Shown in pieces: positions 203-64,000 of a DNA stretch of 64,000 nt. The stretch is from Mobula birostris (lineage: Eukaryota). The stretch is taken from the NCBI RefSeq assembly GCF_030028105.1, contig NC_092376.1, positions 60,188,935 to 60,252,934 on the forward strand, written 5' to 3'. The notes under the pieces were generated by a model. That model had not been told where the DNA came from and searched no databases. It saw nothing but the letters and a program-made list of their open reading frames with translations. A program made the translations under genes and the position numbers. Position 1 is the first letter of the stretch, and each line of letters begins with the position of its first letter.

Positions 203-2749
203 AAACAGGAATTCTGCAGATGCCAGAAATTCAAGCAACACACATAAAAGTTGCTGGTGAACGCAGCAGGCCAGGCAACATCTGTAGGAAGAGGTGCAGT
301 CGACGTTTCAGGCCCAGACCCTTCGTCAGGACTAACTGAAGGAAGAGTGAGTAAGGGATTTGAAAGTTGGAGGGGGAGGGGGAGATCCAAAATGATAGGA
401 GAAGACAGGAGGGGGAGGGATGGAGCCAAGAGCTGGACAGGTGATAGGCAAAAGGGATATGAGAGGATCATGGGACAGGAGGTCCAGGAAGAAAGACGGG
501 GGGGAGGGGACCCAGAGGATGGGCAAGGGGTATATTCAGAGGGACAGAGGGAGAAAAAGGAGAGTGAGAAAGAATGTGTGTATAAAAATAAGTAACAGAT
601 GGAGTACAAGGGGGAGGTGGGCATTAGCGGAAGTTAGAGAAGTCGATGTTCATGCCATCAGGTTGGAGGCTACCCAGACGGAATATAAGGTGTTGTTCCT
701 CCAACCTGAGTGTGGCTTCATCTTTACAGCAGAGGAGGCCGTGGATAGACATGTCAGAATGGGAATGGGATGTGGAATTAAAATGTGTGGCCACTGGGAG
801 ATCCTGCTTTCTCTGGCGGACAGAGCATAGATGTTCAGCAAAGCGGTCTCCCAGTCTGCGTCGGGTCTCGCCAATATATAAAAGGCCACATCGGGAGCAC
901 CGGACGCAGTATATCACCCCAGTCGACTCACAGGTGAAGTGTTGCCTCACCTGGAAGGACTGTTTGGGGCCCTGAATGGTGGTAAGGGAGGAAGTGTAAG
1001 GGCATGTGTAGCACTTGTTCCGCTTACACGGATAAGTGCCAGGAGGGAGATCAGTGGGGAGGGATGGGGGGGACGAATGGACAAGGGAGTTGCGTAGGGA
1101 GCGATCCCTGCAGAATGCGGGGGGGGGGGGGAGGGAAAGATGTGCTTAGTAGTGGGATCCCGTTGGAGATGGCGGAAGTTACGGAGAATAATATGTTGGA
1201 CCCGGAGGCTGGTGGGGTGGTAGGTGAGGACCAGGGGAACCCTATTTCTAGTGGGGTGGCGGGAGGATGGAGTGAGAGCAGATGTACGTGAAATGGGGGA
1301 GATGCGTTTAAGAGCAGAGTTGATAGTGGAGGAAGGGAAGCCCCTTTCTTTAAAAAAGGAAGACATCTCCCTCGTCCTAGAATGAAAAGCCTCATCCTGA
1401 GAGCAGATGCGGCAGAGATGGAGGAATTGCGAGAAGGGGATGGCGTTTTTGCAAGAGACAGGGTGAGAAGAGGAATAGTCCAGACAGCTGTGAGAGTCAG
1501 TAGGCTTATAGTAGACATCAGTGGATAAGCTGTCTACAGAGACAGAAAGATCTAGAAAGGGGAGGGAGGTGTCGGAAATGGACCAGGTAAACTTGAGGGC
1601 AGGCTGAAAGTTGGAGGCAGAGTTAATAAAGTCAACGAGTTCTGCATGCTTGCAGGAAGCAGTGCCAATGCAGTCGTCTATGTAGCGAAAGAAAAGGTGG
1701 GGACAGATACCAGAATAGGCACGGAACATAGATTGTTCCACAAAGCCAACAAAAAGGCAGGCATAGCTAGGACCCATACGGGTGCCCATAGCTACACCTT
1801 TAGTTTGGAGGAAGTGGGAGGTGCCAAAGGAGAAATTATTAAGAGTAAGGACTAATTCCGCTAGACGGAGCAGAGTGGTGGTAGAGGGGAACTGATTAGG
1901 TCTGGAATCCAAAAAGAAGCGTAGAGCTTTGAGACCTTCCTGATGGGGGATGGAAGTATATAGGGACTGGACATCCATGGTGAAAATAAAGCGGTGGGGG
2001 CCAGGGAACTTAAAATCATCGAAAAGTTTAAGAGCGTGAGAAGTGTCATGAACATAGGTCGGAAGAGATTGAACAAGGGGGATAAAACCTTGTCGAGGTA
2101 TGCAGAAACGAGTTCGGTGGGGCAGGAGCAAGCTGAGACAATAGGTCGGCCAGGACAGGCAGGTTTGTGGATCTTGGGTAGGAGATAGAAACAGGAAGTG
2201 CGAGGTGTGGGAACTATAAGGTTGGTAGCAGTGGATGGGAGATCCTCTGAGCGGATAAAGTCGGTGATGGTGTGGGAGACAATGGCCTGGTGCTCCTTAG
2301 TGGGGTCACGATCGAGGGGTAAATAAGAGGAGGTATCCGCAAGTTGTCGCTGTGCCTCGGCAAGGTAGAGGTCAGTACACCAGACTACAACAACTGGTTT
2401 AATAATAAGGTTAGGATTAGTGCGGAGGGAGTGGAGAGCAGAGTGTTCCGAAGGAGTGAGGTTGGAATGGGGACAAGGTGCGGTGAAGTCGAGACGGTTG
2501 ATGTCCCGTCAGCAGTTAGCGATAAAGAGATCCAGAGCAGGCAGAAGACCAGAGTGGGGTGTCCATGAAGCAGAGGAGGGTTGAAGATGGGAGAAGGGGT
2601 CATCGGTGGGGGTGGAAGAGTCCTTACCGAAGAAGTAGGCTCGGAGACGGAGACGGTGGAAGAAAAGTTCCGCATCATGGCGAACACGGAACTCGCTGAG
2701 GTGTGGGCGAAGGGGGACAAACGTGAGGCCCTTACTGAGGACAGAGCGT
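203..2749 (-). mobile_element. Penelope-like retroelement (Neptune type), left arm of an inverted dimer; 5'-truncated, full 3' tail
   Basis: ORF 947..2131 has PLE RT motifs (FTMDVQSLYTSIP, QTKGVAMGTRMGPSYA, RYIDD). ORF 624..950 is a GIY-YIG endonuclease (VIYCVRCSRCGLLYIGET...RFAEH...EEQHLI...GMN). The two are separated by a frameshift at the G-run near 1119-1131. Confidence 0.93.
298..333 (-). ncRNA. Minimal type I hammerhead ribozyme (PLE-associated), intact core
   Basis: Minus strand reads AGUC-CUGACGA-AGGGUCUGGGCCU-GAAAC-GUC-GACU. This gives both conserved core boxes, stem I AGUC/GACU, a stem II hairpin and a GUC cleavage triplet. Confidence 0.8.
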
Positions 2750-5421
2750 CCCCTCAGAGGCTCCATCTTCCTCTCACCCCAACCCTCCCCTCTCCATTGA
2801 CACCCCCAGCCTCCCCCCTCCCCCCTCTGATCCCAGCGCTCATTCGTGCCGGGTCTTTACCATCCCCTCCGACCTTCAACTGTCGGAGGCAGAACGCTCT
2901 GTCCTCAGTAAGGGCCTCACGTTTGTCCCCCTTCGCCCACACCTCAGCGAGTTCCGTGTTCGCCATGATGCGGAACTTTTCTTCCGCCGTCTCCGAGCCT
3001 ACTTCTTCGGTAAGGACTCTTCCACCCCCACCGATGACCCCTTCTCCCATCTTCAACCCTCCTCTTCTTCATGGACACCCCACTCTGGTCTTCTGCCTGC
3101 TCTGGATCCCTTTATTGCTAACTGCCGACAGGACATCAACCGTCTCGACTTCACCGCACCTTGTCCCCATTCCAACCTCACTCCTTCGGAACGCTCTGCT
3201 CTCCACTCCCTCCGCACTAATCCTAACCTTATTATTAAACCCGCCGATAAGGGGGGTGCTGTTGTAGTCTGGCGTACTGACCTCTACCTTGCCGAGGCAC
3301 AGCGACAACTCGCGGATACCTCCTCTTATTTACCCCCCGATCGTGACCCCACTAAGGAGCACCAGGCCATTGTCTCCCACACCATCACCGACTTTATCCG
3401 CTCAGGGGATCTCCCATCCACTGCTACCAACCTTATAGTTCCCACACCTCGCACTTCCTGTTTCTATCTCCTACCCAAGATCCACAAACCTGCCTGTCCT
3501 GGCCGACCTATTGTCTCAGCTTGCTCCTGCCCCACCAAACTCGTTTCTGCATACCTCGACACGGTTTTATCACCCCTTGTTCAATCTCTTCCGACCTATG
3601 TTCGTGACACTTCTCACGCTCTTAAACTTTTCGATGATTTTAAGTTCCCTGGCCCCCACCGCTTTATTTTCACCATGGATGTCCAGTCCTTATGTACTTC
3701 CATCCCCCATCAGGAAGGTCTCAAAGCTCTACACTTCTTTTTGGATTCCAGACCTAATCAGTTCCCCTCTACCACCACTCTGCTCCGTCTAGCGGAATAA
3801 GTCCTTACTCTTAATAATTTCTCCTTTGGCTCCTCCCACTTCCTCCAAACTAAAGGTGTAGCTATGGGCACCCGTATGGGTCCTAGCTATGCCTGCCTTT
3901 TTGTTGGCTTTGTGGAACAATCTATGTTTCATGCCTATTCTGGTATCTGTCCTCCATTTTTCCTTCGCTACATCGACGACTGCATTGGCGCTGCTTCCTG
4001 CACGCATGCAGAACTCGTTGACTTTATTAACTTTGCCTCCAACTTTCACCCTGCCCTCAAGTTTACCTGGTCCATTTCCGACACCTCCCTCCCCTTTCTA
4101 GATCTTTCCGTCTCTGTCTCTGGAGACAGCTTATCCACTGATGTCTACTATAAGCCTACTGACTCTCACAGCTATCTGGACTATTCCTCTTCTCACCCTG
4201 TCTCTTGCAAAATCGCCATCCCCTTCTCGCAATTCCTCCGTCTCCGCCGCATCTACTCTCAGGATGAGGCTTTTCATTCTAGGATGAGGGAGATGTCTTC
4301 CTTTTTTAAAGAAAGGGGCTTCCCTTCCTCCACTATCAACTCTGCTCTTAAACGCATCTCCCCCATTTCACGTACATCTGCTCTCACTCCATCCTCCCAT
4401 CACCCCACTAGGAATAGGGTTCCCCTGGTCCTCACCTACCACCCCACCAGCCTCCGGGTCCAACATATTATTCTCTGTAATTTCCGCCACCTCCAATGGG
4501 ATCCCACCACTAAGCACATCTTTCCCTCCCCCCCCCCCCCCGCATTCTGCAGGGATCGCTCCCTACGCAACTCCCTTGTCCATTCGTCCCCCCCATCCCT
4601 CCCCACTGATCTCCCTCCTGGCACTTATCTGTGTAAGCGGAACAAGTGCTACACATGCCCTTACACTTCCTCCCTTACCACCATTCAGGGCCCCAAACAG
4701 TCCTTCCAGGTGAGGCAACACTTCACCTGTGAGTCAACTGGGGTGATATACTGCGTCCGGTGCTCCCGATGTGGCCTTGTATATATTGGCGAGACCCGAC
4801 GCAGAATGGGAGACCGCTTTGCTGAACATCTACACTCTGTCCGCCAGAGAAAGCAGGATCTCCCAGTGGCCACACATTTTAATTCCACATCCCATTCCCA
4901 TTCTGACATGTCTATCCACGGCCTCCTCTATTGTAAAGATGAAGCCACACTCAGGTTGGAGGAACAACACCTTATATTCCGTCTGGGTAGCCTCCAACCT
5001 GATGGCATGAACATCGACTTCTCTAACTTCCGCTACTGCCCACCTCCCCCTCGTACCCCATCTGTTACTTATTTTTATACACACATTCTTTCTCTCACTC
5101 TCCTTTTTCTCCCTCTGAATATACCCCTTGCCCATCCTCTGGGTCCCCTCCCCCCTTGTCTTTCTTCCCGGACCTCCTGTCCCATGATCCTCTCATATCC
5201 CTTTTGCCTATCACCTGTCCAGCTCTTGGCTCCATCCCTCCCCCTCCTGTCTTCTCCTATCATTTTGGATCTCCCCCTCCCCCTCCAACTTTCAAATCCC
5301 TTACTCACTCTTCCTTCAGTTAGTCCTGACGAAGGGTCTCGGCCTGAAACGTCGACTGCACCTCTTCCAACAGATGCTGCCTGGCCTGCTGCGTTCACCA
5401 GCAACTTTTATGTGTGTTGCT
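2750..5421 (+). mobile_element. Penelope-like retroelement (Neptune type), right arm of the inverted dimer
   Basis: ORF 3864..5447 contains the RT C-terminal half (YIDD), the Cys linker CKRNKCYTC and GIY-YIG. There is an upstream in-frame stop at about 3798-3800. The native stop has changed to TAC near 5034, which extends the ORF through the 3' UTR. Confidence 0.93.
5322..5357 (+). ncRNA. Minimal type I hammerhead ribozyme (PLE-associated), intact core, predicted cleavage after 5353
   Basis: AGTC(5322-25) CTGACGA(5326-32) AGGGTCTCGGCCT(5333-45) GAAAC(5346-50) GTC(5351-53) GACT(5354-57). Confidence 0.8.
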
Positions 5422-6405
5422 TCTTTCGTAACAGTGAGGTTTTGTAAAGCGAACGTTCGAAAAGCGGGGGACACTTGTACTGATGTGACATTCTGTTTTC
5501 AGTAGTGCAACTCCTCCACCTCTTTTACACATCCCACCATCACATCTAAAACAATGAAACCCAGGACTGTTGAGCTGCTAGTCCTGTCCTTAACAAAATC
5601 ACATTTCTAAAAGTTTTGTCTTAAATTATGTCTGTATACTCAACCCACTGTATACCCAGATTATAAATATACATCTACCAGCCACTAGAGAACATAGTAC
5701 TTACTTTGAGTTTGATACCATTTCCACCATTCTTTGTGGTTATGAAACTGATAACAAAAGTTTGTTGCCAAAGTTGCTTATCAAATGCACCCCCTCAAAC
5801 ATTGAGAGCATATAGTTTTCCAAGTGCTAATTCATGTATACTGTGCTTCATATAAAGTAAATGTTTTCATATTTGCATATATGCACACAGATACAATGTT
5901 AATCATTGATTTATTTAATGTCTCATTATTAATTATGGCTTAATACTCTTCCTAAGAGATTTATACAGGTGGTATACAGTGGACAACAGGAAGTACACAT
6001 TTTATAAAACTGGTGGGGTGGGAGAACCTTACTCCCCTCACCCCAATCCTTCAATGTTTTCCTTACCAAAAGTATTGATTTCAAGATTCAAGCACTTATC
6101 CAACATCTTTCCTGACCTCAAAGTCCTAAAATGAATTCCATCCACTTAAAGCATTCTGATTTCTTCCTTACCAATATATCTATACAAGATCTGCTTATAA
6201 ACCAATCGACATAAGACAATTGATGTGAAAGAAAACTAAGACAAGGTTCCGATATAAAACAGGTCTGTCAAGTAACAAAAAAAATTGACCACATTTGTGC
6301 AGCTCTGCAAGATGTTTATACCATCTAAGGAAGACTGCAGTTTAACAGGTAGTTAATAAATCTCATTTATATGCAGGATATAAAAAGTGGAAACCATGCT
6401 CTCAC

Positions 6406-7954: not shown

Positions 7955-8142
7955 CACAAACAACAGAAAATCTGCAGATGCTGGAAATCCGAGCAACACA
8001 CACAAAATGCTGGAGGAACTGAGCAGGCCAGGTAGCACCTATGGAAAAAAAAGGACTCCTGCCGAAGGGTTCTGGCCCAAAATGTCGACTGCATTTTTTC
8101 CATAGATGCTGCCGAGTTCCTCCAGTATTCTGTGTATGTTGC
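7955..8142. mobile_element. Short inverted PLE-derived insertion with a degenerate hammerhead
   Basis: A minus arm with tail (AACAGAAAATCTGCAGATGCTGG...) is followed by a plus arm CTGCCGAAGGGTTCTGGCCCAAAATGTCGACT...TGTTGC. Confidence 0.75.
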
Positions 8143-16152: not shown

Positions 16153-18036
16153 AACACACACAAAATGCTGGAGAAACTCAGCAAGTCAGGCAGCACCTAT
16201 GGAAAGGAATAAATTCTGAACTTGTGTCGGTACATCTTGACTCCATTTTATCCCCTTCAGTCCCTTCCCATATACAGCTACATCCATTACATTTCACACA
16301 TTCTCGATCTCTCCAACAACTTACAATTCCCTGTTCCTGATTGGCTCATTTTCACTATGGATGTCCAATCCCTATACTCTATCCCTCCGCCCCCCCCCCC
16401 CCCCATCAAGAAGGCCTTAAAGCCCTCCACTTCTTTATCAACTCCGGACCCATCCAGCACCTCCCTCCTCTATCTGGCAGAACTGGTCCTCCCACTCAAC
16501 GATTTCTCTTTCGGCTCCTCCCACTTTCTCCAAACCCAAGGTATAGCCATAGGCAACCACATGGGCCGCAGCTATCCCTGCCTTTTCATTGGCCATGTGG
16601 AACAGTCCATGTTCCCAGCCTTCACCGGTTATGCTCCCAAACTGTTTCTGTGCTACACTGATAACTGCATTGGTGCTGCTTCATGCTCCCATTGCTGAAC
16701 TCGTCAATTTCATCAACTTTGCCTCCAACTTCCATCGTCCTTAAATTCATTTGATCAGCTTCTAAAATCTCTCTCTCCTCAATCTGTCTACCTCCATTTC
16801 TAGGGACAAACTGTCTCAAAGAAATCTACTGATCGTCACAGGTGTCTTTTGACTATACTTCTTCCTACCCAGTCGCCTGTAAAAATGCCATTCCCTTTTC
16901 TCAATTCCTTCGTCTCCACTGCATTTGTTCTCAGAATGAGATTTCCTCCTTCTTCAATGAACAGGGTTTCCTTTCGTTGTTCACCATTGATGCTGCCCTC
17001 ACCTGCATCTCCTCCATTTCCCGGACATCCACCCTCACCTCACCTTCCCGCTGCATTAACAGTGATAGATTTTCTCTTGTCCTTTTCTAACACCTGATGA
17101 GCCTCCCCACCCAGCGCTTCATTCTCTGCAACTTCCACCACCTTCAATAGCATCCTAACATATCTTTACTCCTCTTCCCCTCAACTCTCTGCTTTCCATG
17201 GGAGTCCTTTTCTCCATGATTCACTAGTTCAGTCATCCCTCCCCACTATTCTCCCTCCCAGCCCTTATCCCTGCAAGCAGGAGAAGTGCTCACTTGTCCG
17301 TTCACCTCCTCCATCCCCTACATTCAGGGCCCAAACAGTCCTTCCAGGAGAGACAACACTTCAGCTGCAAATCTCTTGAGGTAGTTTACTGTATCTGGTG
17401 CTCCTAATGTACCCTCCTGTACATCGATGACACCCAGTGTAGAGTGGGAAACTGCTTTGTCAAGCATTTTCATTCCATCCACAACAACCAAGATTTCCTG
17501 GTGGTCAACCATTTTAATTCCAATCCCTATTTCAATTCTAACATGATGGTCCATGGCCCCCTCTACTGCAACGATGAGGCTACTCTCAGGTTGGATGAGT
17601 AACACCTCATTCCATCTCAGTAGCTTCCAGCCTGAAAGCATGAATATTGATTTCTCTAACCTCTGTTAATTTTCCCCCTGCCCCTCTTCCATTCTCCACT
17701 CTGACTGCCCTCTTACCTCTTCTCTTCTCCTCACATCCCTATCACTTCCCCCTGGTGCACCTCCTCCTTCCCTTTCTCCCATGGTCCACTCTCCTCTCCT
17801 ATCAGATTCCTCCTTCTTCAGCACTTTACCTTTTCCACCTATCACATCCCAGCTTCTCACTGCATCCCCTCCTCCCTCACCTTCTTATTTGAATTCTTCC
17901 CCCTTCTATTCCAGCCTGATGAATGGTCTCAGCCTGAAACAGTGACTGTTTTTCCTTTCCATAGATGCTGCCTGACTTGCTGTTTCTCCAGCATTTTGTG
18001 TGTGTTGCTGTGGATTAACAGCATCTACATCATTTT
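16153..18036 (+). mobile_element. Older degenerate Penelope-like element with a short inverted 5' arm
   Basis: RT remnants FTMDVQSLY and QTQGIAIGNHMGRSY; degenerate hammerhead CTGATGA...GAAAC at 17916-17940; inverted arm at 16153-16212. Flanks ATCTTAAAAATTAA (16141) and ATCTTAAAATTTAA (18037) resemble a TSD. Confidence 0.85.
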
Positions 18037-24229: not shown

Positions 24230-25365
24230 ATAAACTGTTAGAAGTCAGCAGGTTTGACTGTATCTGTGAAGGCAAAAGAGTGGTTGATAATTTGGGTCAA
24301 GACCCTCCATCAGGACTGAGTGTAGAGTGAAGACAGCTGGTGTATAGAAGTAAAAAGGAAGGGTAAGGCAAAGGCTGGTAGGTGACATATAAAATGAGAT
24401 TTCAGGGCCGGGGGTGATGGGGAGAGACAGCTAAGAGAGGGAGTGGGGATTGTTGAAACAGAGGCTGGTAGGTGATAGGTGGAACTAGGCAATAGAGGGT
24501 GATGGATAACAGAACCAGATGCTTGAGGGGAAAGGAAAGGTTGAGGTAGACAGACACCCCAATAGTTTGAACATTTCATTTAACAAATTCCCTGTGCTTT
24601 TTATGCAGTCACCAATCCAACTACAGTAGAGTTTATCCCCACCACCACCATCTCCACCCTCATTACCAAGATTAATCACTCTGTCCATCTGCTCATCATC
24701 CACATACCTCTATGGGTTTCTTCTTCCTTGGTTCACTTTTCCTGTCATTCACCTTCCTTCCCCCCCAACCCCAGCCCACTCAGTCTGGTGCCATCTGCTC
24801 ATACCTCCCTTATCTGGTTCCACTTATTACCTATAGCCTCTATTCTTCCCTCCCTCACCTGGCTCCTCTGTTTAAAATTTTCTTCCTTTTCTTTATTTAT
24901 GTTTCTGCTTATTGCCTACCAGCCTCTGTCTCTACTCTTTTCTCCCTCATCTGGCTCCACCTTCTTAAAATTTTCTTTACGCAAACAACAGGAATTCTGC
25001 AGATGCTGGAAATTCAAGCAACACACATCAAAGTTGCTGCTTGGCCTGCTGCGTTCACCAGCAACTTTGATGTGTGTTGCTAAAATTTTCTTTATTTGTG
25101 TTTCCACTTATCACCTAGCAGCCTCTTGTTGTTACCCAGCCCATCATCCACCCCACCCCCCACATTTGGTTCCATCTATCAGCTACTAAACTGTTTCACC
25201 CTTCCTCAATTCTATATATAGGCTTTCTTCTCTCTACATTCTGTCTTGACCTGAAACATGAAACATTCCTTTGTCTCCACAGGTGCTGCTGACCTGCTGA
25301 GTTCTTCCAGCAATTTATCATTTTTTGCTCCGGATTCCATCATTTGCAGCCTCTTGTGTCTTCCA
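24230..25365. mobile_element. Old inverted non-coding PLE-derived element
   Basis: A purine-rich minus arm (hammerhead relic ...GACCCTCCATCAGGACT near 24301-24317) is followed by a pyrimidine-rich plus arm ending in a PLE-like tail (...CCAGCAATTTATC...TTGCTCCGGATTCCATCATTTGCAG). Confidence 0.55.
24980..25080. mobile_element. 101-bp mini inverted PLE insertion with a perfect 14-bp TSD
   Basis: TSD TAAAATTTTCTTTA at 24966-24979 and 25081-25094. A 23-bp perfect stem forms between 25017-25039 and 25059-25081. The sequence is nearly identical to the ends of the 203-5421 element. Confidence 0.9.
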
Positions 25366-30395: not shown

Positions 30396-31178
30396 CTATT
30401 TATATCGGACTAGACGAAGAACCTTGTAATTCATGAAGTCAGAGGAATCTGGCTGTAGTGAATCTACATGGAATCCATCACTCATTGCTGTTTTTAGCAC
30501 TTCCTCCACAAACAACTGAAAATTATTAACTTGCTCATTTGTAGGCACAATCCAAAGTCTTTTTAAATGTTGCCTTGTGTATTCATCTTCAGGCAGCACT
30601 GCCACATGTCCAACCCACTGTAATGTCAAATGATGTGGATCCTTTATCTCATAGCCAATTGGTAAAAGTTTACCATTAACAAAGTAACAAAACTTGGAGC
30701 TCAAATACTTCAAGAATTCGGCTGATGTGCAAAATATGTTGGCATCAAAGACTTCTGTACTACACGAGGTTAGGTTGTACATTTGTGGGGCTGGTTTAAC
30801 AGTGAAGTACACAGTCTGTAGTCTCTGGTCCAGAGTAATGTTGAGCATTGCATTCCTTTCTGCCTTGGCAATTTCAGATTCTCTCTCCTGTAAAGCCTCG
30901 ATTAAAGGCTGGATCTGGTAAAAATCAGCTTCTCTCTTCAAAAGTCTAACTTCTTGAAAATCATCTGGGAGGTCGAGGTTTGATGTGCGCAAAAAGTTTA
31001 GAATATATCGAAATATTTTCCCATCTCTGTCAATGAAGTAATTACCGTGCTGATCACTAGTTGAGGGCATTTTCCCACTGAACATCACACCCAGCATTGA
31101 GTCTGGGTATCGCGTTAAAGTTGCCAGAGAACTGGTATACAATTTTCCTCCTACATTTAATGTTATAGGCTCAGACAT
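30396..31178 (-). CDS. KCTD21: BTB/POZ domain-containing protein KCTD21 (single coding exon, 260 aa)
   Basis: [21 protein letters not shown]...[17 protein letters not shown] is the BTB/T1 domain. The C-terminus is KCTD21-specific ([33 protein letters not shown]). A polypyrimidine tract and AG acceptor lie at 31214-31215. Confidence 0.93.
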
Positions 31179-37739: not shown

Positions 37740-40700
37740 GAGATGCTGGATTGCATAAAGGGAGAGAGAGTTTAAAAGAAGCAAGGAGGGGCAGCCTGCA
37801 CATTTCCCACAGTTCCCGACGAGACACTAGATCGCGCAAAGTTAGGCACTTGAGAAGGACCAATAAAAAGAAGTTTTAGCAGGACGTCCATTGTGTGGAC
37901 GCCAGTGTTAGAGTGGGGAGTTGAGGCTTCAGCTCATCAAGGCTTAGGAGAGGTGTAGGCCATATGGAGATTTTTTTGTTGTTGTTGTTTATTCTTTATT
38001 TCTTTTTTATTGAACATTTAGAGCTGTGGGGTTGCCAGACAGGATACTGGAATGCTCCTCTTGTGAGATGTGGGAAGGCAGGGAGACCTCCAGTGTCCCT
38101 GATAACTATACCTGCGAGAGGTGCATCCAGCTGCAGCTTCTAACAGACCATGTTAAGGAGTTGGAGCTGGAACTGGATGTACTCCGGATCATCTGGGAGG
38201 CTGAAAAGTTGATAGACAGGACATACAGGGAGGTAGTTACACCCAAGATGCAGGACACAGATAACTGGGAGGGGGAAAGGGGATAGGTAGCCTCTGTGGC
38301 TGTTCCCCTCAACAACAGGTGTATCACTTTGGATACTGTTGGTGGAGGGGGAATGGAGATTGCTCTAGCAGAGGAAAGCCACAGCAGTTAGGTTCTGGTA
38401 TTCGGTCATTTACTGCCCCCCCCCTTCTGAGTCTGGCTCCCTAGCTCAGAAGGGAAAGGGGGAGAGGTAGTGATCGAGAAATTGTTGGTTAGGGGAACAG
38501 AAAGGAGGTTCTGTGAATGAGAACGAGATTCCTGGATAGTTTTTTTGCCTCCCAAGTGTTAGAGTGAGGGACATCTCAGACTGAGTGCACAGCGTTCTTC
38601 CGTGGGATAGTGAGCATCCAGTGGCCATGGTCCACGTTGGTACCAGCGACATGGGTAGGAAAAACTGTAGACATTTCAGGCCAAGATGCTTCATCAGGAC
38701 AGTTGAAGGGGTCTCACCATGAAATGTCGACTGTTTACTCTTTTCCATAGATGCTGCCGGGCCTGCTAAATTCCTCCAGCATTTTGTACACGTTGCTTGG
38801 ATTAGGACAAGTTGTTTTCTGACAAAGATATACTTAGTAAGTGGGAGGCCTTCAGAAGTGAATTCTTGAGATTACACAGTAAAAGGCAAGGATAACAGGT
38901 TTAAGGAACCTTGGCTTTTGAGAGATATTGAACCCCTGGTTAAGAAAAAGAGGAGGTGCAGAGCAGATATAGGCAAGCAGGAACAAATGAGGTACTTGAG
39001 GAGTATAAAAAATGCAAGAGAACACTTAAGGAAATCAGAGGGCTAAAAGAAGACTGGAGGTTGTTCTAGTGGACAAGGTGAAGAAGAATCCAAAGATCTT
39101 CTACAAAGATATTAAGAGCAAAAGGATTACAGGGGACAAATTTGGTCCTCTGCAAGATCAAAGTGGTAACCTATGCATGGAGCCGAACGAGATGTAGGCG
39201 ATCTTAAATGGATTTTTAACATGTGTATATAATCAGGAGATGGACACAGAGTCTATAGTTGTGAGTCAAAGCAGCAGAAAGGCCATGGACCCTACACAGG
39301 TTACAGAGGAGGAGTTGTTTGCTCTTTTGAGGCAAATTACAGTGGATAAATTCCCAGGGCCTGACAGTGTGATCCCTCGGACCCTGTGGAAGGTTAGTGC
39401 AGAAATTGCAGTGGCCCTAGCAGAGATATTTAAAACATATTTAGCTACAGGTGAGATGCTGGAGGATTGGACAATAGCTAATGTTGTTCCAAACAAGAGA
39501 AAATCTGCAGATACTGGAAATCCAAGAAACACACACAAAATACAGGAGAAACTCAGCAGGCCAGGCAGCATCTGTGGAAAAGAGTACAGTCAATGTTTCT
39601 GGCCGAAACCCCTCAGCAGGACTAGAGAAAAAAAATGAGGAGTTAGAGTTAGAGGGAGGGGAGGGAAAAACACAAGGTGAAAGATAAAACCAAGTGGGGG
39701 GTAGGGATGGTAAAGAGTTGGGAAGTTGGTTGGTAAAAGAGATACAGAGCTGGAGAAGGGTGAATCTAATTGGAGAGGACAAAAGGCCAAGGAAGAAAGA
39801 AAAGGGGGAGGAGCAACAGAGAGAGGCAATGGGCAGGCAAGGAGATAAAGTGAGAGAGGGAAAAGAGGATGGGGAATGGTGAAGGGGGGGCCATTACTGA
39901 AGGTTCAAGAAATCAATGTTCATGCCATCAGGTTGGAGGCTATCCAGAAGGAATATAAGAAAAAAATGTTCTATTGTTTAAGAAAAAGCTCTAAGAATAA
40001 GCCAAGAAATTATAGGCCAGTGAGCCTGATATCAGTATTGGAAAGTTATTGGAAAGTGTTCTAAGGGGACCAGATATATAAGTATTTAGGTAGAGAAGGA
40101 CTAATTAGCGATAGCAAACATGGCTTCGTGCATGGGACAGTTGGTTGTGACTAACCAATCTTACAGATTTTTCATGGAACTTATCAGGGAAGTTAATAAA
40201 GGCAAGACAGTGGATGTTGTCTACATGGACTTTAGCAAGGCCTTTGACATGAGATGTTGGTCAGAAGGTTCAGTTGCTTGGCATTCAAGATGAGGGATTA
40301 AATTAGATTTGACATTTGCTTCACAGAAGAAACCAGAGAGAGGTTGCAGGTGGTTGCTTCATTGACTGGAGGTTTGTGACTAGTGGTATGCCACAGGGAT
40401 CGGTGCAGGGTCTGTTGTTGTTTGCCATCTATATCAATGATCTGGATGAGAATATGGTAAACTGGATCAGCAAATTTGCGGATGACACCAAAACTGGAGG
40501 TGTATTGGACAGCAAAGAAGACTATCAAAGCTTGCAGTGGGATCTGGAGCAACTGGAAAAATGGTCCTAAAAATGGTAGATGGAAATTTATTGCAGACAA
40601 GTTTGAGGTGTTGCAATTTGGTAGAGCCAACCAGAGTAGGTCTTACACAGTGAATAGTAGGGTGCTGAGGAGCGCGATAGAACAGAGGAGTCTGGGAAAA

Positions 40701-41356: not shown

Positions 41357-41459
41357 TTGTTGGACTGCACTGTATCTACTACTTCTTGTAGCTTTTTCTG
41401 TGCCGTGCATATCAGATGATGGTAACAGGAGAGACAAAAAAACTTAGTACTGTATTACA

Positions 41460-41683
41460 GCAACACACACAAAATGCTGGAGGAACTCAGCAGGCCAGGC
41501 AGTATCTATGGAAAAGAGTAAACAGTCAATGTTTGGGGCTGAGGCCTTTTATGTGAAGGATCTTGGCCCGAAATATCAACTGTTAACTCTTTTCCATAGA
41601 CGCTGCCTGGCCTACTGAGTTCCTCCAGCATTTTGTGAGTGTTGCTTTGATTTCCAGCAACTGCAGATTTTCTCTTGTTTTTG
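41460..41683. mobile_element. ~225-bp inverted (hairpin) PLE-derived insertion
   Basis: The minus arm starts GCAACACACACAAAATGCTGG and the plus arm ends in the full tail. Flanks AACTTAGTACTG (41441-52) and AACTTAGTATTG (41684-95) form an 11/12 TSD. Confidence 0.85.
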
Positions 41684-44979: not shown

Positions 44980-46246
44980 CTGACTCTCACAGCTATCTGG
45001 ACTATTCCTCTTCTCACCCTGTCTCTTGCAAAAACGCCATCCCCTTCTCGCAATTCCTCCGTCTCCGCCGCATCTGCTCTCAGGATGAGGCTTTTCATTC
45101 TAGGACGAGGGAGATGTCTTCCTTTTTTAAAGAAAAGGGCTTCCCTTCCTCCACTATCAACTCTGCTCTTAAACGCATCTCCCCCATTTCACGTACATCT
45201 GCTCTCACTCCATCCTCCCACCACCCCTCTAGGAATAGGGTTCCCCTGGTCCTCACCTACCACCCCGCCAGCCTCCGGGTCCAACATATTATTCTCCGTA
45301 ACTTCCGCCACCTCCAACGGGATCCCACCACTAAGCACATCTTTCCCTCCCCCCGCCTCTGCATTCCGCAGGGATCGCTCCCTACACAGCTCCCTTGTCC
45401 ATTCGTCCCCCTCATCCCTCCCCACTGATCTCCCTCCTGGCACTTATCCGCGTAAGCGGAACAAGCGCTACACATGCCCTTACACTTCCTCCCTTACCAC
45501 CATTCAGGGCCCCAAACAGTCCTTCCAGGTGAGGCAACACTTCACCTGTGAGTCGACTGGGGTGATATACTGCGTCCGGTGCTCCCGATGTGGCCTTTTA
45601 TATATTGGCGAGACCCAACGCAGACTGGGAGACCGCTTTACTGAACATCTATGCTCTGTCCGCCAGAGAAAGCAGGATCTCCCAGTGGCCACACATTTTA
45701 ATTCCACATCCCATTCCCATTCTGACATGTCTATCCACGGCCTCCTCTACTGTAAAGATGAAGCCACACTCAGGTTGGAGGAACAACACCTTATATTCCG
45801 TCTGGGTAGCCTCCAACCTGACGGCATGAACATCGACTTCTCTAACTTCCGCTAGGCCCCACCTCCCCCTCGTACCCCATCTGTTACTTATTTTTATGCA
45901 CACATTCTTTCTCTCACTCTCCTTTTTCTCCCTCTGTCCCTCTGAATATACCTCTTGCCCATCCTCTGGGTCCCCCCCCCTTGTCTTTCTTCTCGGACCT
46001 CCTGTTCCATGATCCTCTCATATCCCCTTTTGCCAATCACCTGTCCAGCTCTTGGCTCCATCCCTCCCCCTCCTGTCTTCTCCTATCATTTTGGATCTCC
46101 CCCTCCCCCTCCAACTTTCAAATCCCTTACTCACTCTTCCTTCAGTTAGTCCTGACGAAGGGTCTCGGCCTGAAACATCGACTGCACCTCTTCCTAGAGA
46201 TGCTGCCTGGCCTGCTGCGTTCACCAGCAACTTTGATGTGTGTTGC
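44980..46246 (+). mobile_element. Young 5'-truncated Penelope-like element (same family as 203-5421)
   Basis: RT thumb plus GIY-YIG (ORFs 44943..45428 and 44947..45855); ends at TGTGTTGC. Flanks AAGGAATCTGA (44973-83) and AGGGAATCTGA (46247-57). Confidence 0.9.
46148..46183 (+). ncRNA. Minimal hammerhead ribozyme variant (AUC triplet)
   Basis: AGTC CTGACGA AGGGTCTCGGCCT GAAAC ATC GACT. Confidence 0.7.
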
Positions 46247-49191: not shown

Positions 49192-51333
49192 AATACACCA
49201 GTTAAAACCATCTCCCGCGTATGTGCTTTTATTTAATCGATACATAGTTGTGCACAGACACAACAAATTGGCGACAAGTACCAACCTGAACATCAGAGAA
49301 TATCACCATCTGCACTGACAGTTATGCGATGAAACAACGAGATTTAAACAGCACGAAAAGGCCATCACAGACGCTAACAGAGGAACGCGTAAGTAACAGT
49401 GAAAGACACGCTGAATTTAAAGTAAAAATGACGTGGCGATGCTTTCAGTTGGGAAAGTTGATAAATTTCTTAGCGCTAATGAAAGCTAGGAATTGTATAT
49501 CAAGAGGGTTGAACTGTGTTGTAACGCGAACAAAGTGGAGGAGCAAAAGAAAGCCCCTAGATTTCTGAGCTTAATGGGCCCAAGAACATACAGTCTCTTA
49601 GGCAACTTAATAACCCCTGCAAAGCCAGCAAGCAAGATGTTCGACAAAATTGTTACAATTTTACAAAATCACTTGAGTCCTAAACTGCTGGAAATAGCTG
49701 AGAGATTTAAATTTTACACAAGGAACCAGTCAAAAGATGAAAAGCCTTTCTGAATACGTTGCAGAACTGCACAAATTTTCCCAGTACTTTGACTTCAGAG
49801 ATGTACTTTCTGGTGCATTAAGGGACAGGCTTGTATGTGGCATGCACAGTTGAAGCACTCAAATGAGGCTACTGGCAGAAAGAGAGCTAACCATAGAATG
49901 GGCACTGGCCATTGCAATATCATTAGACAGTGCAGCAAATGATCAGCAGGACTACAGAAAAGGAAGTTGGAATGTGAAATGCACAGAATGTCCCTGAATG
50001 GTGCAAAAAGCCACTGTTATCCATGTGGCAAGTCCACCCATGATGCCACTGACTGTTGATTCAAAGAAAAAATCTGCAGAAAGTGTCACAGCCAAGGTCA
50101 CATAGAGAGAGTGTGTAAGGCAGACAGAGAGAACAACCAAGTGAGAAGTCTCAAAAACAAAACGAAGCAAGTGCATAAAGTTACTGAACGTAAAACAAAA
50201 TCCGACAACATAGAGTCTGACAAAGGTGAACTGTCGCGCCTGGAACTGCATAATATTACGGAAGCAAATCACTATGTACTGTAATATAGGTGTGTCTGGT
50301 GTAACACTGACAGTGGAGCTGGATACAGTGTCAGCTTTGTCTGTAATTCCAGAGGCTGGCCACAACAGACTGTTTTCTAAGATACCATTAGAGAAGACGT
50401 CGGTGATGCTAAAGGCCTGCACAGGTGAAAAAGTGTCCTCCAAAGGCAAACTGAAAGTGAGGGTGATGTATGGAGGCCAAACAGAGCAGTGAGCTTTAGG
50501 TATTGAAAAGTGGAGGAACAGCACTTTTCAGATGTGAATGGTTTTGAAAATTTCAACCAGACTGGCACTCAATCAAAGCTCTCAGTGTGACATCAATGGG
50601 CAATGGTAACCTAAATGATAGTGGCAACCAGAGACTGGTAGAGCTGCTTAATGCTAATGAGGAGGTATTTGAGAAAGGGATTGGTAAACTCAAAGGCCTG
50701 GAGGCCAGAATTGAACTCGATGAAGCAGCAACTCCAAGAATCCATAAAGCGTGCCCAGTGCCTTATGCATTACGTCCCAAAGTGGATGCTGAACTTCAGA
50801 ACTTAGAGGCATCTGGCACTGTCTCCAAGGTTGAATGGAGTGGTCGGGTCATGCCCATCGTCTGGGTGATCAAGAAAGGAAAGGCTGGAGCTGTTCGTAT
50901 ATGTGGGGATTTCAAAGTGAGCATCAACCTGGTGCTGTGTACTGTGCAGCATCCCCTGTCACAAATAGAAGACTTTTTTGCATCTTTAGCAGATAGGGAG
51001 AGGATTTCAAAGATTGACTTGTCACAAGCCTATCTGCAAATGGAGATTGAGGAGTTAAGCAGGGAGTTCTTCATAATCAGCACTCACAAAGGACTGTTCT
51101 AGTATAATTGTCTTATCTTTGGCATCCCATCAGCTCCAGCAATTTGGCCAAGATATCCTAGGAACACAATGTTACCTTGATGACATCATTGTGACTGGTA
51201 AAAATGATGAAGAGCACCTCCAGAACCTTCACAAAGTGCTTACCAGGCTGAGTGAGTATGGTCTGCACGCAAAGAGAGAGAATGTGAGTTTTTCAAGAAT
51301 GAAATCTCATATTGTAGACATGTCATTAACAAG

Positions 51334-52315
51334 TGCAAACATGAGGAAATCTGCAGATGCTGGAAATTCGAGCAACACACACAGCATCCATAAGAAAAAA
51401 ACACAGTCGACATTTCGGGCCGAGACCCTTTATCAGGATTAACTGAAGTCTAGTGTGATATACTGCGTCCAGTGCTCCTGGTGCGGCCTTCTATACATTG
51501 GTGTCACCTGTGAGTCAGCTGGTGTGATATATTGCGTCCGGTCCTCCCGCTGCAGCCTCCTATATATTGGTATCACCTGTGAGTCGGCTGGTGTGATATA
51601 CTGCGTCTGGTGCTCCCTTCTATATATTGGGGAGACCCGACGCAGACTAGGAGACTGTTTTGCTGAACACCTACGCTCCTGTCTCCCAGAGAAAGCAGGA
51701 TCTCCCAGTGACCACACATTTTATTTCCACGTCCCATTCCCATTCTGATATGTCAATCCATGGCCTCCTCAACTGTCAAAATGAAGTCACACTCAGGTTG
51801 GAGGAACAACACCTTATATTCTGTCTGGGTAGCCTCCAACCTGATGGCATGAACATTGACCTCTCTAACTTCCGTTAATGCCCCTCCTCCCCTTCTTACC
51901 CCATTTCTTATTTATTTATTTATTTATCTATCTATCTATCTATTAATTAATTAATTAATTCCCCCTTTTTTTCTCTCTCTGTCCCTCTCACAATAACTCC
52001 TTGCCTGCTGTCCATCTTCCTCTGGTGCTCCCCTCCACCCTTCTCTCTCCCTAGGCCTCCCATCCCATGATCCTCTCCCTTCTCCAGCCTTGCATCCCTT
52101 TTGCCAATCGACTTTCCAGCTCTTAGCTCCATCCCTCCTCCTCCTGTCTTCTCCTGTCATTTCGGATCTCCCCCCCCCACTCCCACTTTCAAATCTCTAA
52201 CTATCTCTTCTTTCAGTTAGTCCTGACAAAGGGTCTCAGCCCGAAACGTCGACTGTGTTTTTTCCTATGGATGCTGTCTGGCCTGCTGCGTTCCACCAGT
52301 ATTTTGTGTGTGTTG
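51334..52315. mobile_element. Inverted PLE insertion within the Gypsy RT
   Basis: Perfect 14-bp TSD ATGTCATTAACAAG (51320-33, 52316-29). A short tailed minus arm (51334-51448) precedes a plus arm with GIY-YIG remnants that ends TGTGTTG. Hammerhead variants at about 51405-51440 (-) and 52219-52254 (+). Confidence 0.9.
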
Positions 52316-52840: not shown

Positions 52841-55482
52841 GAAACATAGAAACATAGAAAATAGGTGCAGGAGTAGGCCATTCGGCCCTTCGAGCCTGCA
52901 CCGCCATTTATTATGATCATGGCTGATCATCCAACTCAGAACCCCGCCCCAGCCTTCCCTCCATACCCCCTGACCCCCGTAGCCACAAGGGCCATATCTA
53001 ACTCCCTCTTAAATATAGCCAATGAACTGGCCTCAACTGTTTCCTGTGGCAGAGAATTCCGCAGATTCACCACTCTCTGTGTGAAGAAGTTTTTCCTAAG
53101 GTCCTAAAAGGCTTCCCCTTTATCCTCAAACTGTGGCCCCTCGTTCTGGACTTCCCCAACATCGGGAACAATCTTCCTGCATCTAGCCTGTCCAATCCCT
53201 TTAGGATTTTATACGTTTCAATCAGATCCCCCCTCAATCTTCTAAATTCCAACCAGTACAAGCCCAGTTCATCCAGTCTTTCTCCATATGAAAGTCCTGC
53301 CATCCCAGGAATCAATCTGGTGAACCTTCTTTGTACTCCCTCTATGGCAAGGATGTCTTTCCTCAGATTAGTGGACCAAAACTGCACACAATACTCCACG
53401 TGTGGTCTCACCAAGGCCTTGTACAACTGCAGTAGTACCTCCCTGCTCCTGTACTCGAATCCTCTCGCTATAAATGCCAGCATACCATTCGCCTTTTTCA
53501 CCGCCTGCTGTACCTGCATGCCCACTTTCAATGACTGGTGTATAATGACACTCAGGTCTCGTTGCACCCCCCCTTTTCCTAATCGGCCACCATTCACATA
53601 ATAATCTGTTTTCTTATTTTTGCCACCAAAGTGGATAACTTCACATTTATCCACATTAAATTGCATCTGCCATGAATTTGCCCACTCACCCAACCTATCC
53701 AAGTCACCCTGCATCCTCTTAGCATCCTCCTCACAGCTAACACTGCCACCCAGCTTCGTGTCATCCGCAAACTTGGAGATGCTGCATTTAATTCCCTCAT
53801 CCAAGTCATTAATATATATTGTAAACAACTGGGGTCCCAACACTGAGCCTTGCGGTACCCCACTAGTCACCGCCTGCCATTCTGAAAAGGTCCCGTTTAT
53901 TCCCTCTCTTTGCTTCCTGTCTGCCAACAAATTCTCTATCCACATCAATACCTTACCCCCAATACCATGTGCTTTAAGTTTGCACACTAATCTCCTGTGT
54001 GGGACCTTGTCAAAAGCCTTTTGAAAATCCAAATATACCACATCCACTGGTTCTCCCCTATCCACTCTACTAGTTACATCCTCAAAAAATTCTATGAGAT
54101 TCGTCAGACATGATTTTCCTTTCACAAATCCATGCTGACTTTGTCTGATGATTTCACCGCTTTCCAAATGTGCTGTTATCACATCTTTGATAACTGACTC
54201 CAGCAGTTTCCCCACCACCGACGTTAGGCTAACCAGTCTATAATTCCCCGGTTTCTCTCTCCCTCCTTTTTTAAAAAGTGGGGTTACATTAGCCACCCTC
54301 CAATCCTCAGGAACTAGTCCAGAATCTAACGAGTTTTGAAAAATTATCACTAATGCATCCACTATTTCTTGGGCTACTTCCTTAAGCACTCTGGGATGCA
54401 GATCATCTGGCCCTGGGGATTTATCTGCCTTCAATCCCTTCAATTTACCTAACACCACTTCCCTACTAACATGTATTTCGCTCAGTTCCTCCATCTCACT
54501 GGACCCTCTGTCCCCTACTATTTCTGGAAGATTATTTATGTCCTCTTTAGTGAAGACAGAACCAAAGTAATTATTCAATTGGTCTGCCATGTCCTTGCTC
54601 CCCATAATCAATTCACCTGTTTCTGTCTGCAGGGGACCTACATTTGTCTTTACCAGTCTTTTCCTTTTCACGTATCTATAAAAGCTTTTACAGTCAGTTT
54701 TTATGTTCCCTGCCAGTTTTCTGTCATAATCTTTTTTCCCCTTCCTAATTAAGCCCTTTGTCCTCCTCTGCTGAACTCTGAATTTCTCCCAGTCCTCAGG
54801 TGAGCCACTTTCTCTGGCTAATTTGTATGCTTCTTCTTTGGAATTGATACTATCCCTAATTTCTCTTGTCAGCCACGGGTGCACTACCTTCCTTGATTTA
54901 TTCTTTTGCCAAACTGGGATGAACAATTGTTGTAGTTCATCCATGCAATCTTTAAATGCTTGCCATTGCATATCCACCGTCAATCCTTTAAGTGTCATTT
55001 GCCAGTCTATCTTAGCTAATTCACGTCTCATACCTTCAAAGTTACCCCTCTTTAAGTTCAGAACCTTTGTTTCTGAATTAACTATGTCACTCTCCATCTT
55101 AATGAAGAATTCCACCATATTATGGTCACTCTTATCCAAGGGGCCTCTCACGACAAGATTGCTAATTAACCCTTCCTCGTTGCTCAAAACCCAATCCAGA
55201 ATAGCCTGCTCTCTAGTTGGTTCCTCGACATGTTGGTTCAAAAAACCATCCCGCATACAATCCAAGAAATCCTCTTCCTCAGCACCTTTACCAATTTGGT
55301 TCACCCAATCTACATGTAGATTGAAGTCACCCATTATAACTGCTGTTCCTTTATTGCACACATTTCTAATTTCCTGTTTAATACCATCTCCGACCTCACT
55401 ACTACTGTTAGGTGGCCCGTACACAGCTCCCACCAGCGTCTTCTGCCCCTTAGTGTTACGCAGCTCTACCCATATCGATTTA
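52841..55482 (-). mobile_element. Young 5'-truncated CR1 LINE (ORF2: partial APE endonuclease plus RT)
   Basis: ORF 53067..55568 has GDFN, SDH, YLDFQKAFDKV, SGVPQGSVLGPQLF and KFADD. The 3' tail is (TTTCTATG)n at 52841-52860. It interrupts the Gypsy integrase at a TTTA microhomology/TSD. Confidence 0.95.
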
Positions 55483-56499
55483 TCCAAACCTTCAAGCACA
55501 GGGTGGACAACTTCCTGTTTGTGTATCGGATTCGGAACTCTGTTCACGCAATGACAAATTCTGTTCATGAACAGGAATCTGAGATCTCACACAGACCTCC
55601 TGAAATCAGATCTATGGAGGGAAATACAGAATACAGAGGAAGTCCTAGCACGTGATTACCGAGAAGACAAATGGACACCCAGTCGGATAGCTGCAAGAAC
55701 TCTCACTGACAGCAAAGTGACACTGTAAACCAAGAACATGGTCTTAGACAAGGCACCTACCAAATCTGAGTGATGTCACTCCACAGCTCCAGAGGTGCGA
55801 CAAGAACATTATTGTTTGACAGAACTCCCTCTCTCTCTCACACACATCAGCAATGAGAATACACCAGTTAAAGCCATCTCTCGGGTGCGTGCTTCTATTC
55901 AATTAATATGTAGTTGTGTACAGACACAACATTCATGATCAACCTCTCAAAGCACTTCATTACAGTGGATGTAAATGCTACTTCATAAGACCATAAGATA
56001 TAGGAGCAGAATTAGGCCATTTGGTCCATCGAGTCGACTCCGCCATTTCATCATGCCCGATCCAACTTCCCTCTCTGTGCCTTCTCCCAGTGTCCTTTCA
56101 TGCCCTGACCTATCAAGAATCTACCAACCTCTGCCTTAAATATGCATAAAGACTTGAATGATAGTCTTTGAGGTCTCGTTTAAACAGTGCATGAAGCCTT
56201 GGACAGGTAGGTTGGAGGGATGGAAAATTAAAGTATCAGGTTGATGTAAACTCAGAGTATGGATGGAACTCAGGTGTTCCGAAGGAGTAGTCGTCCGTTG
56301 GAACTTCTGCCTCTCTGTTTCACTCCCCAGCTGATCGTTTCCAGCATTTTTTGTCTTTATTTCAGTTTTCCAGGATTATATTTTGTTTTTGATTTACAAT
56401 TAACGCTCCCAGAGTATAAGATCCATAGAGCTGCTTAAAGCACAACCTGCTGAAAAGCAATAGCTGTTGCCAGAGCGTTACCCTGCGTGAAGCAGGTGT

Positions 56500-62350: not shown

Positions 62351-62858
62351 TAGTGTAGATCACCAATTTCATTATATTAACAATTGAACATCCCAGATTA
62401 ATCCTTGTGGCTAATCTCCTTTAACAAAAAAAAAGTTTGGAGTAATGTGATTTTTAAAATGACCACTTTTTGATAATACATCTTCTATACAAAATTTAAA
62501 ATCATCTTGGGGTTAACTTTTCATGTTCACAATACAGGAGGTTATTGTATTTGTGGCAGTCCTGGATAAGGAATACACATCCACTCCAGGATATTAATAA
62601 ATACAGCATTGAATCTGATTGAATAAACACCATAACTATTCATCAACTTCGTGGCTTTCGATTTCAAAGCCATCAAATGTGTGCTATGGCATGGTACGTT
62701 TGTATTACTGTTACCAATGTTAGCACACTGCACATCACAAAATCAGGATCTTGGCCGACTATTGAAAGGACACTTTGAAATGAGTGGGTATCCTCAAAAT
62801 TTTGTAATTAAGTGAAATTAGAATTAATGTGGACTTTTTGTTTTAGGATTGAGAAGAC

Positions 62859-63540
62859 ATGGACAAGATTTTGGAAGCTCTGATGTTGTCCTGCCATCCG
62901 ATGTCTGTAAAGTATATTCTTGTAAGACGTATTTTAGAAGCAGCAAAAGAACCTCTCAACAGTAAACAGTGCATAGCCATGTTTGAGTTGTCTACAAAGT
63001 TCATTCTGTTGAGTGATACACAATTCCAAAAAGATGTGGGTAAGGAGGTTCTAGAAGCTTTTGCCCTGAACCACTCTTCAGACTTTGAGAACTTTTTAAC
63101 TGTGCAATTTATCTTAAAGCTTATGCAAGATGGTTATGGAACATTGAGCAAAGGAAGCATTGACATTTTGGAGTACATTCAGCTAGGATTAAAATATATT
63201 CAGGATAATCCATCTTCTGATGAAGTATTTCATGCCCTTCAGGTTGAGCTTCTCCGACTAGTGTGTGAGAAGCCTGGATCAAAGCTTTGTGCTTGCATTA
63301 GTAAAATTCTTATTCAATATCCTCGGTGTATTCCTAGTGGAAAGTTCCAAGTGGTGTTCTGCCAGCAACTTGTTAGAAGTATAGGGCAGTTCCAATGTAA
63401 ATCACAAGAAGAAGATGAAATTGTGGAATTCCTGGATGAAGTAAACAAAGTAAGCGGGTTGTTGCAAAGAATCTGGCAGACACAAACTGCAGCTATGATT
63501 CCATCCTTGCAGGAGCTGTTCACTGTTATTTCATCAACTG
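62859..63540 (+). CDS. USP35: Ubiquitin-specific peptidase 35, first coding exon (N-terminal helical region); gene continues off-window
   Basis: Acceptor ttttag at 62846, ATG 12 nt into the exon, MDKILEA...RRILEAAKEPL...FCQQLVR...ELFTVISST, donor GTAAG at 63541. The sequence belongs to the USP35/USP38 family. USP35 is preferred from KCTD21 synteny and the 5' UTR intron. Confidence 0.85.
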
Positions 63541-63653
63541 GTAAGGAAAATGTATGTTAAACTTGAGGGAATGATTTTTTTTTGGCTATTTTTCTTTCTC
63601 TCACCCCCATGTCTCGCATGCTTCTTGCAAACCAAGCTAGTTGTCACAGTGAC

Positions 63654-63920
63654 ACAAGAAAAAAAACCCTGCAGATGCTGAAATCTGGAGCAATAATCTG
63701 CCGGGGGAATTCAGTAGGTCGAACAGCATTTGTGGGAGGAAAGGAATTGTGGACACTTTGGGATGAAACCGGAGGAATTCAGCAAGTCAAACAGCATTTG
63801 TGGGAGGAAAGGAATTGTGGAAACCCTGTGTTAGGATTCTGACCTGAAATATCAACAGTTCCTTTCCTCCCACAGATACTTCTTGACCCTCAGAGTTCCC
63901 TTGAGCAGATTGTCTATTGC
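63654..63920. mobile_element. Old inverted PLE-derived insertion
   Basis: Tailed minus arm with an internal ~45-bp duplication; the plus arm ends TTGC. Flanks GCTAGTTGTCACAGTGAC (63636-53) and GCTACTTGTCATGGTGAC (63919-36). Confidence 0.7.
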
Positions 63921-64000
63921 TACTTGTCATGGTGACTAAAGCACCTGCATACTATGCTTGGGGAGATCTAGAAGAAACTGAATATAACATGTCCTATATT

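Follow-up and report, generated by a model that had tools for sequence, protein, structure and literature searches.

In Adineta vaga, the Penelope-like elements (PLEs) Pen2a_Av and Pen2 combine inverted pseudo-long terminal repeats (pLTRs), a tail on one arm and a 9-10 bp target site duplication (TSD) (PMC3846280), and the same layout is drawn as typical in the legend to Figure 2 of PMC8557442 and in PMC2377424 (form C of D. virilis Penelope). For the Poseidon element PAc of Anolis carolinensis, both strands were cut and extended in vitro, and two internal start sites bracket the tail (PMC11167929). The layout and the two internal start sites of the reverse transcriptase (RT) are thus already published (PMC3846280; PMC8557442; PMC11167929), whereas the way in which PLEs, the sister group of telomerase RT, complete their integration and acquire inverted repeats is stated to be open (PMC8557442; PMC11167929). 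Here we analyze a stretch of 64,000 nucleotides of the Mobula birostris genome (the window; NC_092376.1, positions 60,188,935 to 60,252,934, or G000:C8:60188935-60252934 of a 4.0-Gb genome), which contains many copies of one such group of retroelements. In its inverted copies, a tailed end is paired with an untailed one almost without exception.

The original prediction, made from the window sequence, described a stereotyped footprint: a tailed arm, an inverted arm stopping at TGTGTTG(C), and a 10-14 bp TSD. It listed as known the short tail on one copy, which is correct but understated, as inverted pLTRs, the one-arm tail and the TSD had been published together (see above). All seven places that it listed indeed consist of two PLE 3' arms arranged head to head, one ending with the tail (T) and the other without it (N). 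The positions below are counted from the last C of the untailed-end motif, taken as 0; coordinates in the window are given in Table 1. TSDs are present at a fixed register (three exact, three imperfect and one doubtful), but their lengths in the window are 12-16 bp; in a chance control of the TSD search, a score of at least 10 was reached by 15 of the 593 pairs of mismatched flanks. For the copy at 7955, the TSD has a binomial p of 0.005 at a hand-chosen register, and the automatic search found none. The motif is literal in some copies only: the copy at 16153 is without its last two bases, the one at 51334-52315 without the last one, and those at 7955 and 63654 carry variants. Therefore, what the untailed ends have in common, across at least three subfamilies, is a homologous position rather than the exact string. 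The copy at 41455..41683 has five extra bases ahead of its untailed end.

An inner 23-mer of the element, blind to the type of end, has 69,018 exact matches in the genome. The DNA around the first 100 matches listed, all in the first 5 Mb of C1, was sampled; as a result, the unbiased set is regional, young, and restricted to arms bearing the 23-mer. Inverted copies account for 40 of its 103 rows, i.e., about four in ten young insertions. Other samples included one random 200-kb block, 39 long copies retrieved by an open reading frame (ORF) query (two near-duplicate loci were dropped), 35 of the 153 short head-to-head copies that matched a pattern blind to the tail, and several further sets of loci. 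A PLE-bearing block occurring three times, ~43 kb apart (L271-L273, G000:C1 35.27-35.37 Mb), is a tandem segmental duplication and was counted once.

The pairing of T with N in inverted copies is near-obligate. In total, 99 inverted copies were identified by the parser in five sets; six were dropped (weak or no TSD, or inner duplicate), all six being T/N by homology end. Each of the remaining 93 TSD-bounded copies (40 unbiased, 12 long, 28 short, and 13 from a layout-biased query) had one T and one N end. The same was found in 35 of 35 short loci selected without regard to the tail (28 overlap the 93), in 12 of 12 TSD-bounded pairs among 30 further loci, and in 11 of 11 pairs classified by homology ends among 40 other loci, eight of them with a clear TSD. 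In an older subfamily 11 of 12 copies were T/N, the exception being N/N without a TSD. Genome-wide, the 153 short copies have 149 tail tags, with two, one and zero tags in 5, 139 and 9 copies vs. 36, 76 and 40 expected if the ends were independent (p = 4e-24). None of nine candidate tail/tail loci proved to be a clean TSD-bounded tail/tail copy: two were untailed with a tail-like start of the TSD, three were T/N at the outer boundary, and four were complex or had one arm just 6-11 nt into the tail. Among single-arm copies both ends occur, 21 T and 20 N in the TSD-bounded ones (n = 41) and 31 T and 30 N in all unbiased ones.

The untailed termini had been expected to be peaked rather than randomly distributed, and they are: N ends lie at -13..+4, with 66 of 93 within -3..+1, and in the unbiased set 30 of 40 fall within -5..+1 (seven exactly at 0) and ten at -6..-13, which is a peak and not a point. 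T ends lie at +29..+45 (71 of 93 within +32..+38), giving a tail of ~36 nt; 15 of the 93 reach +40..+45, mostly along the read-through sequence. Contigs of four runs aligned to a full-length 5' end have loose ends near -98, 0 and +36..+41, which cannot show RNA starts.

The TSD has a median length of 14 bp (range 9-19; 77 of 93 at 12-15). With each end read on its own strand (n = 77), A is frequent just before the inferred nick at both ends, and T occupies 154 of 308 positions at +5..+8 after the nick at the T end and 150 of 308 at the N end, vs. 99 and 87 of 308 further out. Both nicks have one common base preference. The target end overlaps with the template by 1.61 nt (N) and 1.15 nt (T) on average, vs. 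0.68 nt in a simulated null, and overlaps of at least 3 nt were observed in 23 (N) and 11 (T) of 93 copies vs. about 5 expected. The same base preference together with the slight template overlap agrees with a pair of similar nicks, separated by 13-14 nt, at each of which the 3' end serves as a primer on RNA. Since the left arm reads as cDNA of the top-strand end and the right one as cDNA of the bottom-strand end, both have the polarity of first strands. Target-primed reverse transcription, assumed in the original prediction, is thereby supported indirectly, by polarity, TSD, and target preference.

The arms of one insertion were compared at diagnostic sites after dropping CpG-prone and homopolymer columns. 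They are discordant in 72 of 407 diagnostic cells, vs. 155 expected for independent copies and a background of 2%, being too alike for random sources and too unlike for a single template. Among 21 long pairs with at least seven diagnostic sites, nine differ at no more than 10% of sites and six at 25% or more; five reject one template at p < 0.01, with a generous error rate, and only three reject independence at p < 0.05. In the five discordant pairs, 36-50% of diagnostic sites differ, spread over overlaps of 0.2-1.1 kb; each arm resembles copies elsewhere more than it does its partner, several having exact or near haplotype matches elsewhere. The arms of the window insertion 203-5421 are each other's closest relatives, with 2 of 30 differences vs. 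six or more to any other copy.

At 38 unbiased two-piece junctions, the T arm was longer in 15 cases, the N arm in 19, and the arms were equal in four; 21 junctions are without microhomology, and 20 contain extra bases. In 41 short copies, the inverted microhomology at the center has a mean of 3.5 nt. Arm lengths correlate (rho 0.47). The centers do vary, as originally noted, but not freely: of the 97 arms that extend as far as -92, 32 break off at -103..-92, where a hammerhead-like motif has its 5' edge (window 5317-5328; see below). The rate of breaks in this hotspot is 0.028 per base vs. 0.006 downstream (~5x) and 0.002 upstream (~13x), in singles and inverted copies alike, with eight breaks at -97 and six at -98. 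The sequence just upstream resembles a pyrimidine tract ending in AG, and also an initiator. Spliced exons were considered and rejected, as no common upstream sequence was found among 25 stopped copies, and a cap-templated G is unsupported (10 G, 14 C and 6 A among 30 stopped copies). The hotspot may be the 5' end of the RNA; in D. virilis, the same edge of the helix is where the end of an intron was mapped (PMC4209133). The predicted ribozyme cut zone (-70..-62) stops 5 of 115 arms, all in inverted copies (5 of 68 vs. 0 of 47), too few to call it the main 5' stop.

Several separate insertions have the same center breakpoints. L204 and L210 share -437/-387 with the T and N roles swapped, and L217 and L205 share -561/-298 (all at G000:C1 3.9-4.35 Mb); such common breakpoints without clear microhomology hint at preferred RT stops or at re-copying of joined forms. 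Three candidates for internal inversions of the L1 type (L108, L115, L130) turned out to be same-strand deletions.

These data are probably explained by double target-primed first-strand synthesis, in which the protein of the element cuts both target strands in like manner and a separate cDNA is started from each 3' end, at one or the other of two sites within the RNA. A complex with two active sites (for the Anolis element, a dimer is predicted; PMC11167929) would make staggered nicks, with 3' overhangs of 13-14 nt. Synthesis would begin at the motif in one active site and ~36 nt further 3' in the other, aided by base pairing to the target end over 1-4 nt. If both sites fire, the two cDNA 3' ends would be end-joined, with or without microhomology, into the inverted form; if one fires, an ordinary 5'-truncated single arm would be produced; the two active sites may use one RNA or two. 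By analogy with Anolis Poseidon in vitro (PMC11167929), the motif boundary would most readily be taken for the second of the two internal sites at which first strands are started. Double first-strand synthesis accommodates the two end classes (~0 and +29..+45), read-through of both sites, singles of either class, and arms of the same or different haplotypes. A more specific form of it, to which we give somewhat less than an even chance, is asymmetric: a dimer on a dyad target cut 13-14 nt apart could hold two RTs in different registers (motif and tail end) even on two RNAs, so that one event would fuse two sources head to head without a conventional second-strand primer, the tail being the offset between the active sites. 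Several points weigh against double first-strand synthesis. No observed feature explains why two RNAs should still yield one T and one N, and the asymmetry of the complex is assumed. In PMC11167929, the start site did not differ between strands and homology with the cut DNA was not seen, in contrast to the weak microhomology of the present copies. The overall similarity of arms exceeds that of independent copies (72 vs. 155 discordant cells), nine of the 21 long pairs are near-identical, as one-RNA models predict, and the differences between arms could be due to gene conversion between dispersed copies or to tandem transcripts of unlike units. Finally, four further inverted copies, first classed as single, combine a T arm with a partner ending ~20-55 nt short of the motif (such unbiased copies are L053, L203, and L227).

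The near-identical pairs, the close relationship of the arms of the window insertion 203-5421, and the correlation of arm lengths would all be expected if one RNA were always primed twice, by one target end at the motif and by the other in the single-stranded tail, displacing the first cDNA. Such double priming would account for the strictness of T/N pairing with no need for asymmetry in the protein; we nevertheless regard it as unlikely, since the five discordant pairs, with their haplotype matches elsewhere, need extra events (gene conversion at a later time, or transcripts of tandemly arranged unlike units). Synthesis of the inverted arm by self-priming or fold-back of a single cDNA, or on an antisense template, with the tail derived from endonuclease resolution of a DNA intermediate (PMC3846280; PMC8557442), agrees with the center microhomology of short copies and with the recurrent junction pairs. 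However, a folded-back copy cannot exceed its template or differ from it, yet the N arm is longer at 19 of 38 junctions and haplotypes differ in 5 of 21 pairs; the 21 of 38 junctions without microhomology and the single arms of both end classes also make fold-back improbable. The original prediction itself took the motif for a defined RNA end or a second-strand priming site. Many full-length copies (three of four) do end at the motif, and therefore their transcripts would be without a 3' tail, so that a second RNA species could come, e.g., from untailed master copies. This possibility is highly improbable: in four full-length copies the sequence runs on past both the motif and the tail into the leader of the ORF, and most T ends at +40..+45 follow the same sequence; T and N arms have equal allele frequencies at 11 of 11 variable columns tested; and two independent RNA species would not pair so strictly. 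A second-strand primer at the motif conflicts with the first-strand polarity of both arms and with the TSD-bounded singles, which end at the motif about as often as at the tail.

The element is an endonuclease-containing (EN+) PLE, of the Neptune/Nematis type by the definition of PMC8557442. Its single ORF encodes the RT followed by a C-terminal GIY-YIG endonuclease (profile matches; homologs have both domains), although every copy read has a broken coding region. The GIY-YIG match in the tailed arm (window 624-1142, E 9e-5) is above the cut-off, with E 0.0017 in the untailed arm, and the RVT_1 match in the copy L123 (E 3e-5) is below it; a search of PDB sequences with the RT region gave no match. 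PMC8557442 defines both the CX2-5CxxC linker and the CCHH motif, in which two Cys lie between GIY and YIG; the translation of the window element contains the latter motif with its two Cys and, in the RT-EN linker, CX4CxxC (window 4632-4658), because of which the element is not filed in the Penelope/Poseidon clade, where this linker motif is absent. The placement was made by these domains and motifs; the relatives found were unnamed or gene models. For the N-terminal domain, relatives were found in a stingray and a carpet shark; therefore, the element belongs to an elasmobranch lineage.

Four full-length copies contain the pLTR, tail, leader and ORF in one run, with a unit of ~3.5 kb, and partial pLTR-ORF-pLTR tandems (L252, L260, L269, L270) are found along with inverted copies and the 30-40 bp tail. 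Both end sites are rich in U and G and precede the first in-frame ATG, which is located at +72. A candidate minimal type-I hammerhead motif at -99..-62, read from the sequence, has a predicted cut at -67; the core motifs and stem I are present, with 83% of cells paired in nine copies, in agreement with the minimal hammerheads described in PMC4209133. The Rfam scan returned no hammerhead match, just chance hairpin matches to microRNAs. An RNA stem pairing -53..-46 with +9..+16 is 94% paired in nine copies, without a compensatory change. In three full-length copies (L261, L252, L260), the 5' pLTRs extend 44-638 nt past one unit; therefore, cDNA passes the unit length, which requires a tandem or circular template. 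A ~210 bp tandem repeat between the N-terminal domain and the RT (window 2750-2895; L123:3207-3602) varies in copy number among elements. A DNA transposon or miniature element with terminal inverted repeats was rejected, as the termini are asymmetric, lengths range from ~90 bp to >5 kb, and TSDs are 9-19 bp.

Besides the seven places originally listed, the window contains single-arm copies (Table 1). The young single-arm copy at 44980-46246 is nested in an older PLE copy of another subfamily (window 44768-46246), and the copy at 51334-52315 appears, from reading frames only, to be inserted in a decayed RT fragment resembling a long terminal repeat retroelement (window 50548-51442). Other coding regions of the window are host exons for a KCTD21-like BTB protein (30396-31331, minus strand) and a USP38-like N-terminal domain (62853-63557, plus strand), and ORF2 of a long interspersed nuclear element (APE-RT; 53067-55583, minus strand) with an open frame of 838 codons.

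Table 1. PLE insertions and their parts in the window (T, tailed; N, untailed; end positions relative to the motif).
Feature	Position	Strand	Evidence or remark
Left TSD copy of large insertion	190..202	+	13/13 match with 5422-5434
Tailed arm of large insertion, ends at +32, ~2.5 kb, frameshifted RT-EN	203..2749	-	alignment and translation
Tail between the two end sites	203..234	-	sequence
Minimal type-I hammerhead-like motif, tailed arm	297..334	-	read from sequence; no Rfam match
Untailed arm of large insertion, to +1, encoding RT and C-terminal GIY-YIG with one stop at 3798-3800	2750..5421	+	translation, profile
CX4CxxC linker motif, Neptune/Nematis type	4632..4658	+	translation; PMC8557442
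GIY-YIG endonuclease core, two Cys between GIY and YIG	4740..4964	+	profile E 0.0017
Minimal hammerhead-like motif of untailed arm, with predicted cleavage after 5353 (-67) and the 5'-truncation hotspot at its 5' edge	5321..5358	+	
Untailed end motif, site N	5413..5420	+	sequence comparison
Right TSD copy of large insertion	5422..5434	+	13/13
Older short inverted copy, tail left	7955..8142	.	degenerate TSD 7941-7954/8143-8156, 9/14
Old inverted copy: on the left a short untailed arm (-2), on the right a long arm whose tail is shortened	16153..18036	.	TSD 16141-16152/18037-18048, 11/12
Young inverted copy of 101 bp: tailed end on the left at +38, untailed end on the right at 0, 5 nt of microhomology at the junction	24980..25080	.	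TSD 24966-24979/25081-25094, 14/14
Single-arm tailed copy	39490..39960		no TSD found
Older inverted copy: untailed left, tail right	41455..41683	.	TSD 41441-41454/41684-41697, 12/14
Young single-arm copy ending at site N, ~11-bp TSD	44980..46246	+	counter-example to two arms being always present
Inverted copy: on the left a short tailed arm, on the right an untailed arm of 700 bp (-1)	51334..52315	.	TSD 51320-51333/52316-52329, 14/14
Inverted copy of third, divergent subfamily, variant end motif	63654..63920	.	TSD 63638-63653/63921-63936, 13/16

In L1 twin priming, the second target nick primes a second cDNA, leaving an inverted 5' part within the TSD, and the arms copy non-overlapping parts of one RNA from internal microhomology. 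Here, in contrast, the arms start within ~36 nt of each other, copy an overlapping 3' region, and may derive from different source copies, so that the inverted PLE copies are not of the L1 kind. A literature search, with key subscription reviews outside its reach, found no paper stating obligate T/N pairing or two templates, and the accessible parts of PMC8969392, PMC9977147, and bioRxiv 10.64898/2026.07.22.740005 add nothing on pairing.

With canonical EN+ PLE units the element has in common the inverted 5'-truncated pLTR, a 30-40 bp tail at one end only, a short TSD, partial tandems, and the head-to-head order. In those units, however, the tail is described as optional or often at one end and the TSD is 8-10 bp, whereas here the pairing is near-obligate, the median TSD is 14 bp, and the center has a hotspot; self-priming or endonuclease resolution is proposed for them (PMC3846280; PMC8557442). 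PAc likewise has two RT start sites that bracket the tail, there downstream of a hammerhead motif and here of a candidate one, and in both elements the ribozyme cut site, predicted here, is not prominent among the ends; the start sites of PAc are located in an AC-rich stem inside the ORF, unlike the U/G-rich sites upstream of the ATG here, and the Poseidon linker is devoid of CX2-5CxxC, which this element possesses although its ends behave like those of PAc. PMC11167929 draws no link between the two start sites and the two arms of inverted copies. The element and its layout are ordinary; the value lies in the strict pairing, the symmetric target preference, and the evidence for two source RNAs, which narrow the open mechanism. 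Our counts join two published facts, the tail on one inverted arm and the two RT start sites, into one rule. For the existing in vitro system, this rule predicts that every double-ended product has a T end and an N end, that the 3' overhangs are 13-14 nt long, that the two nicks have a common base preference, and that mixed templates occur.

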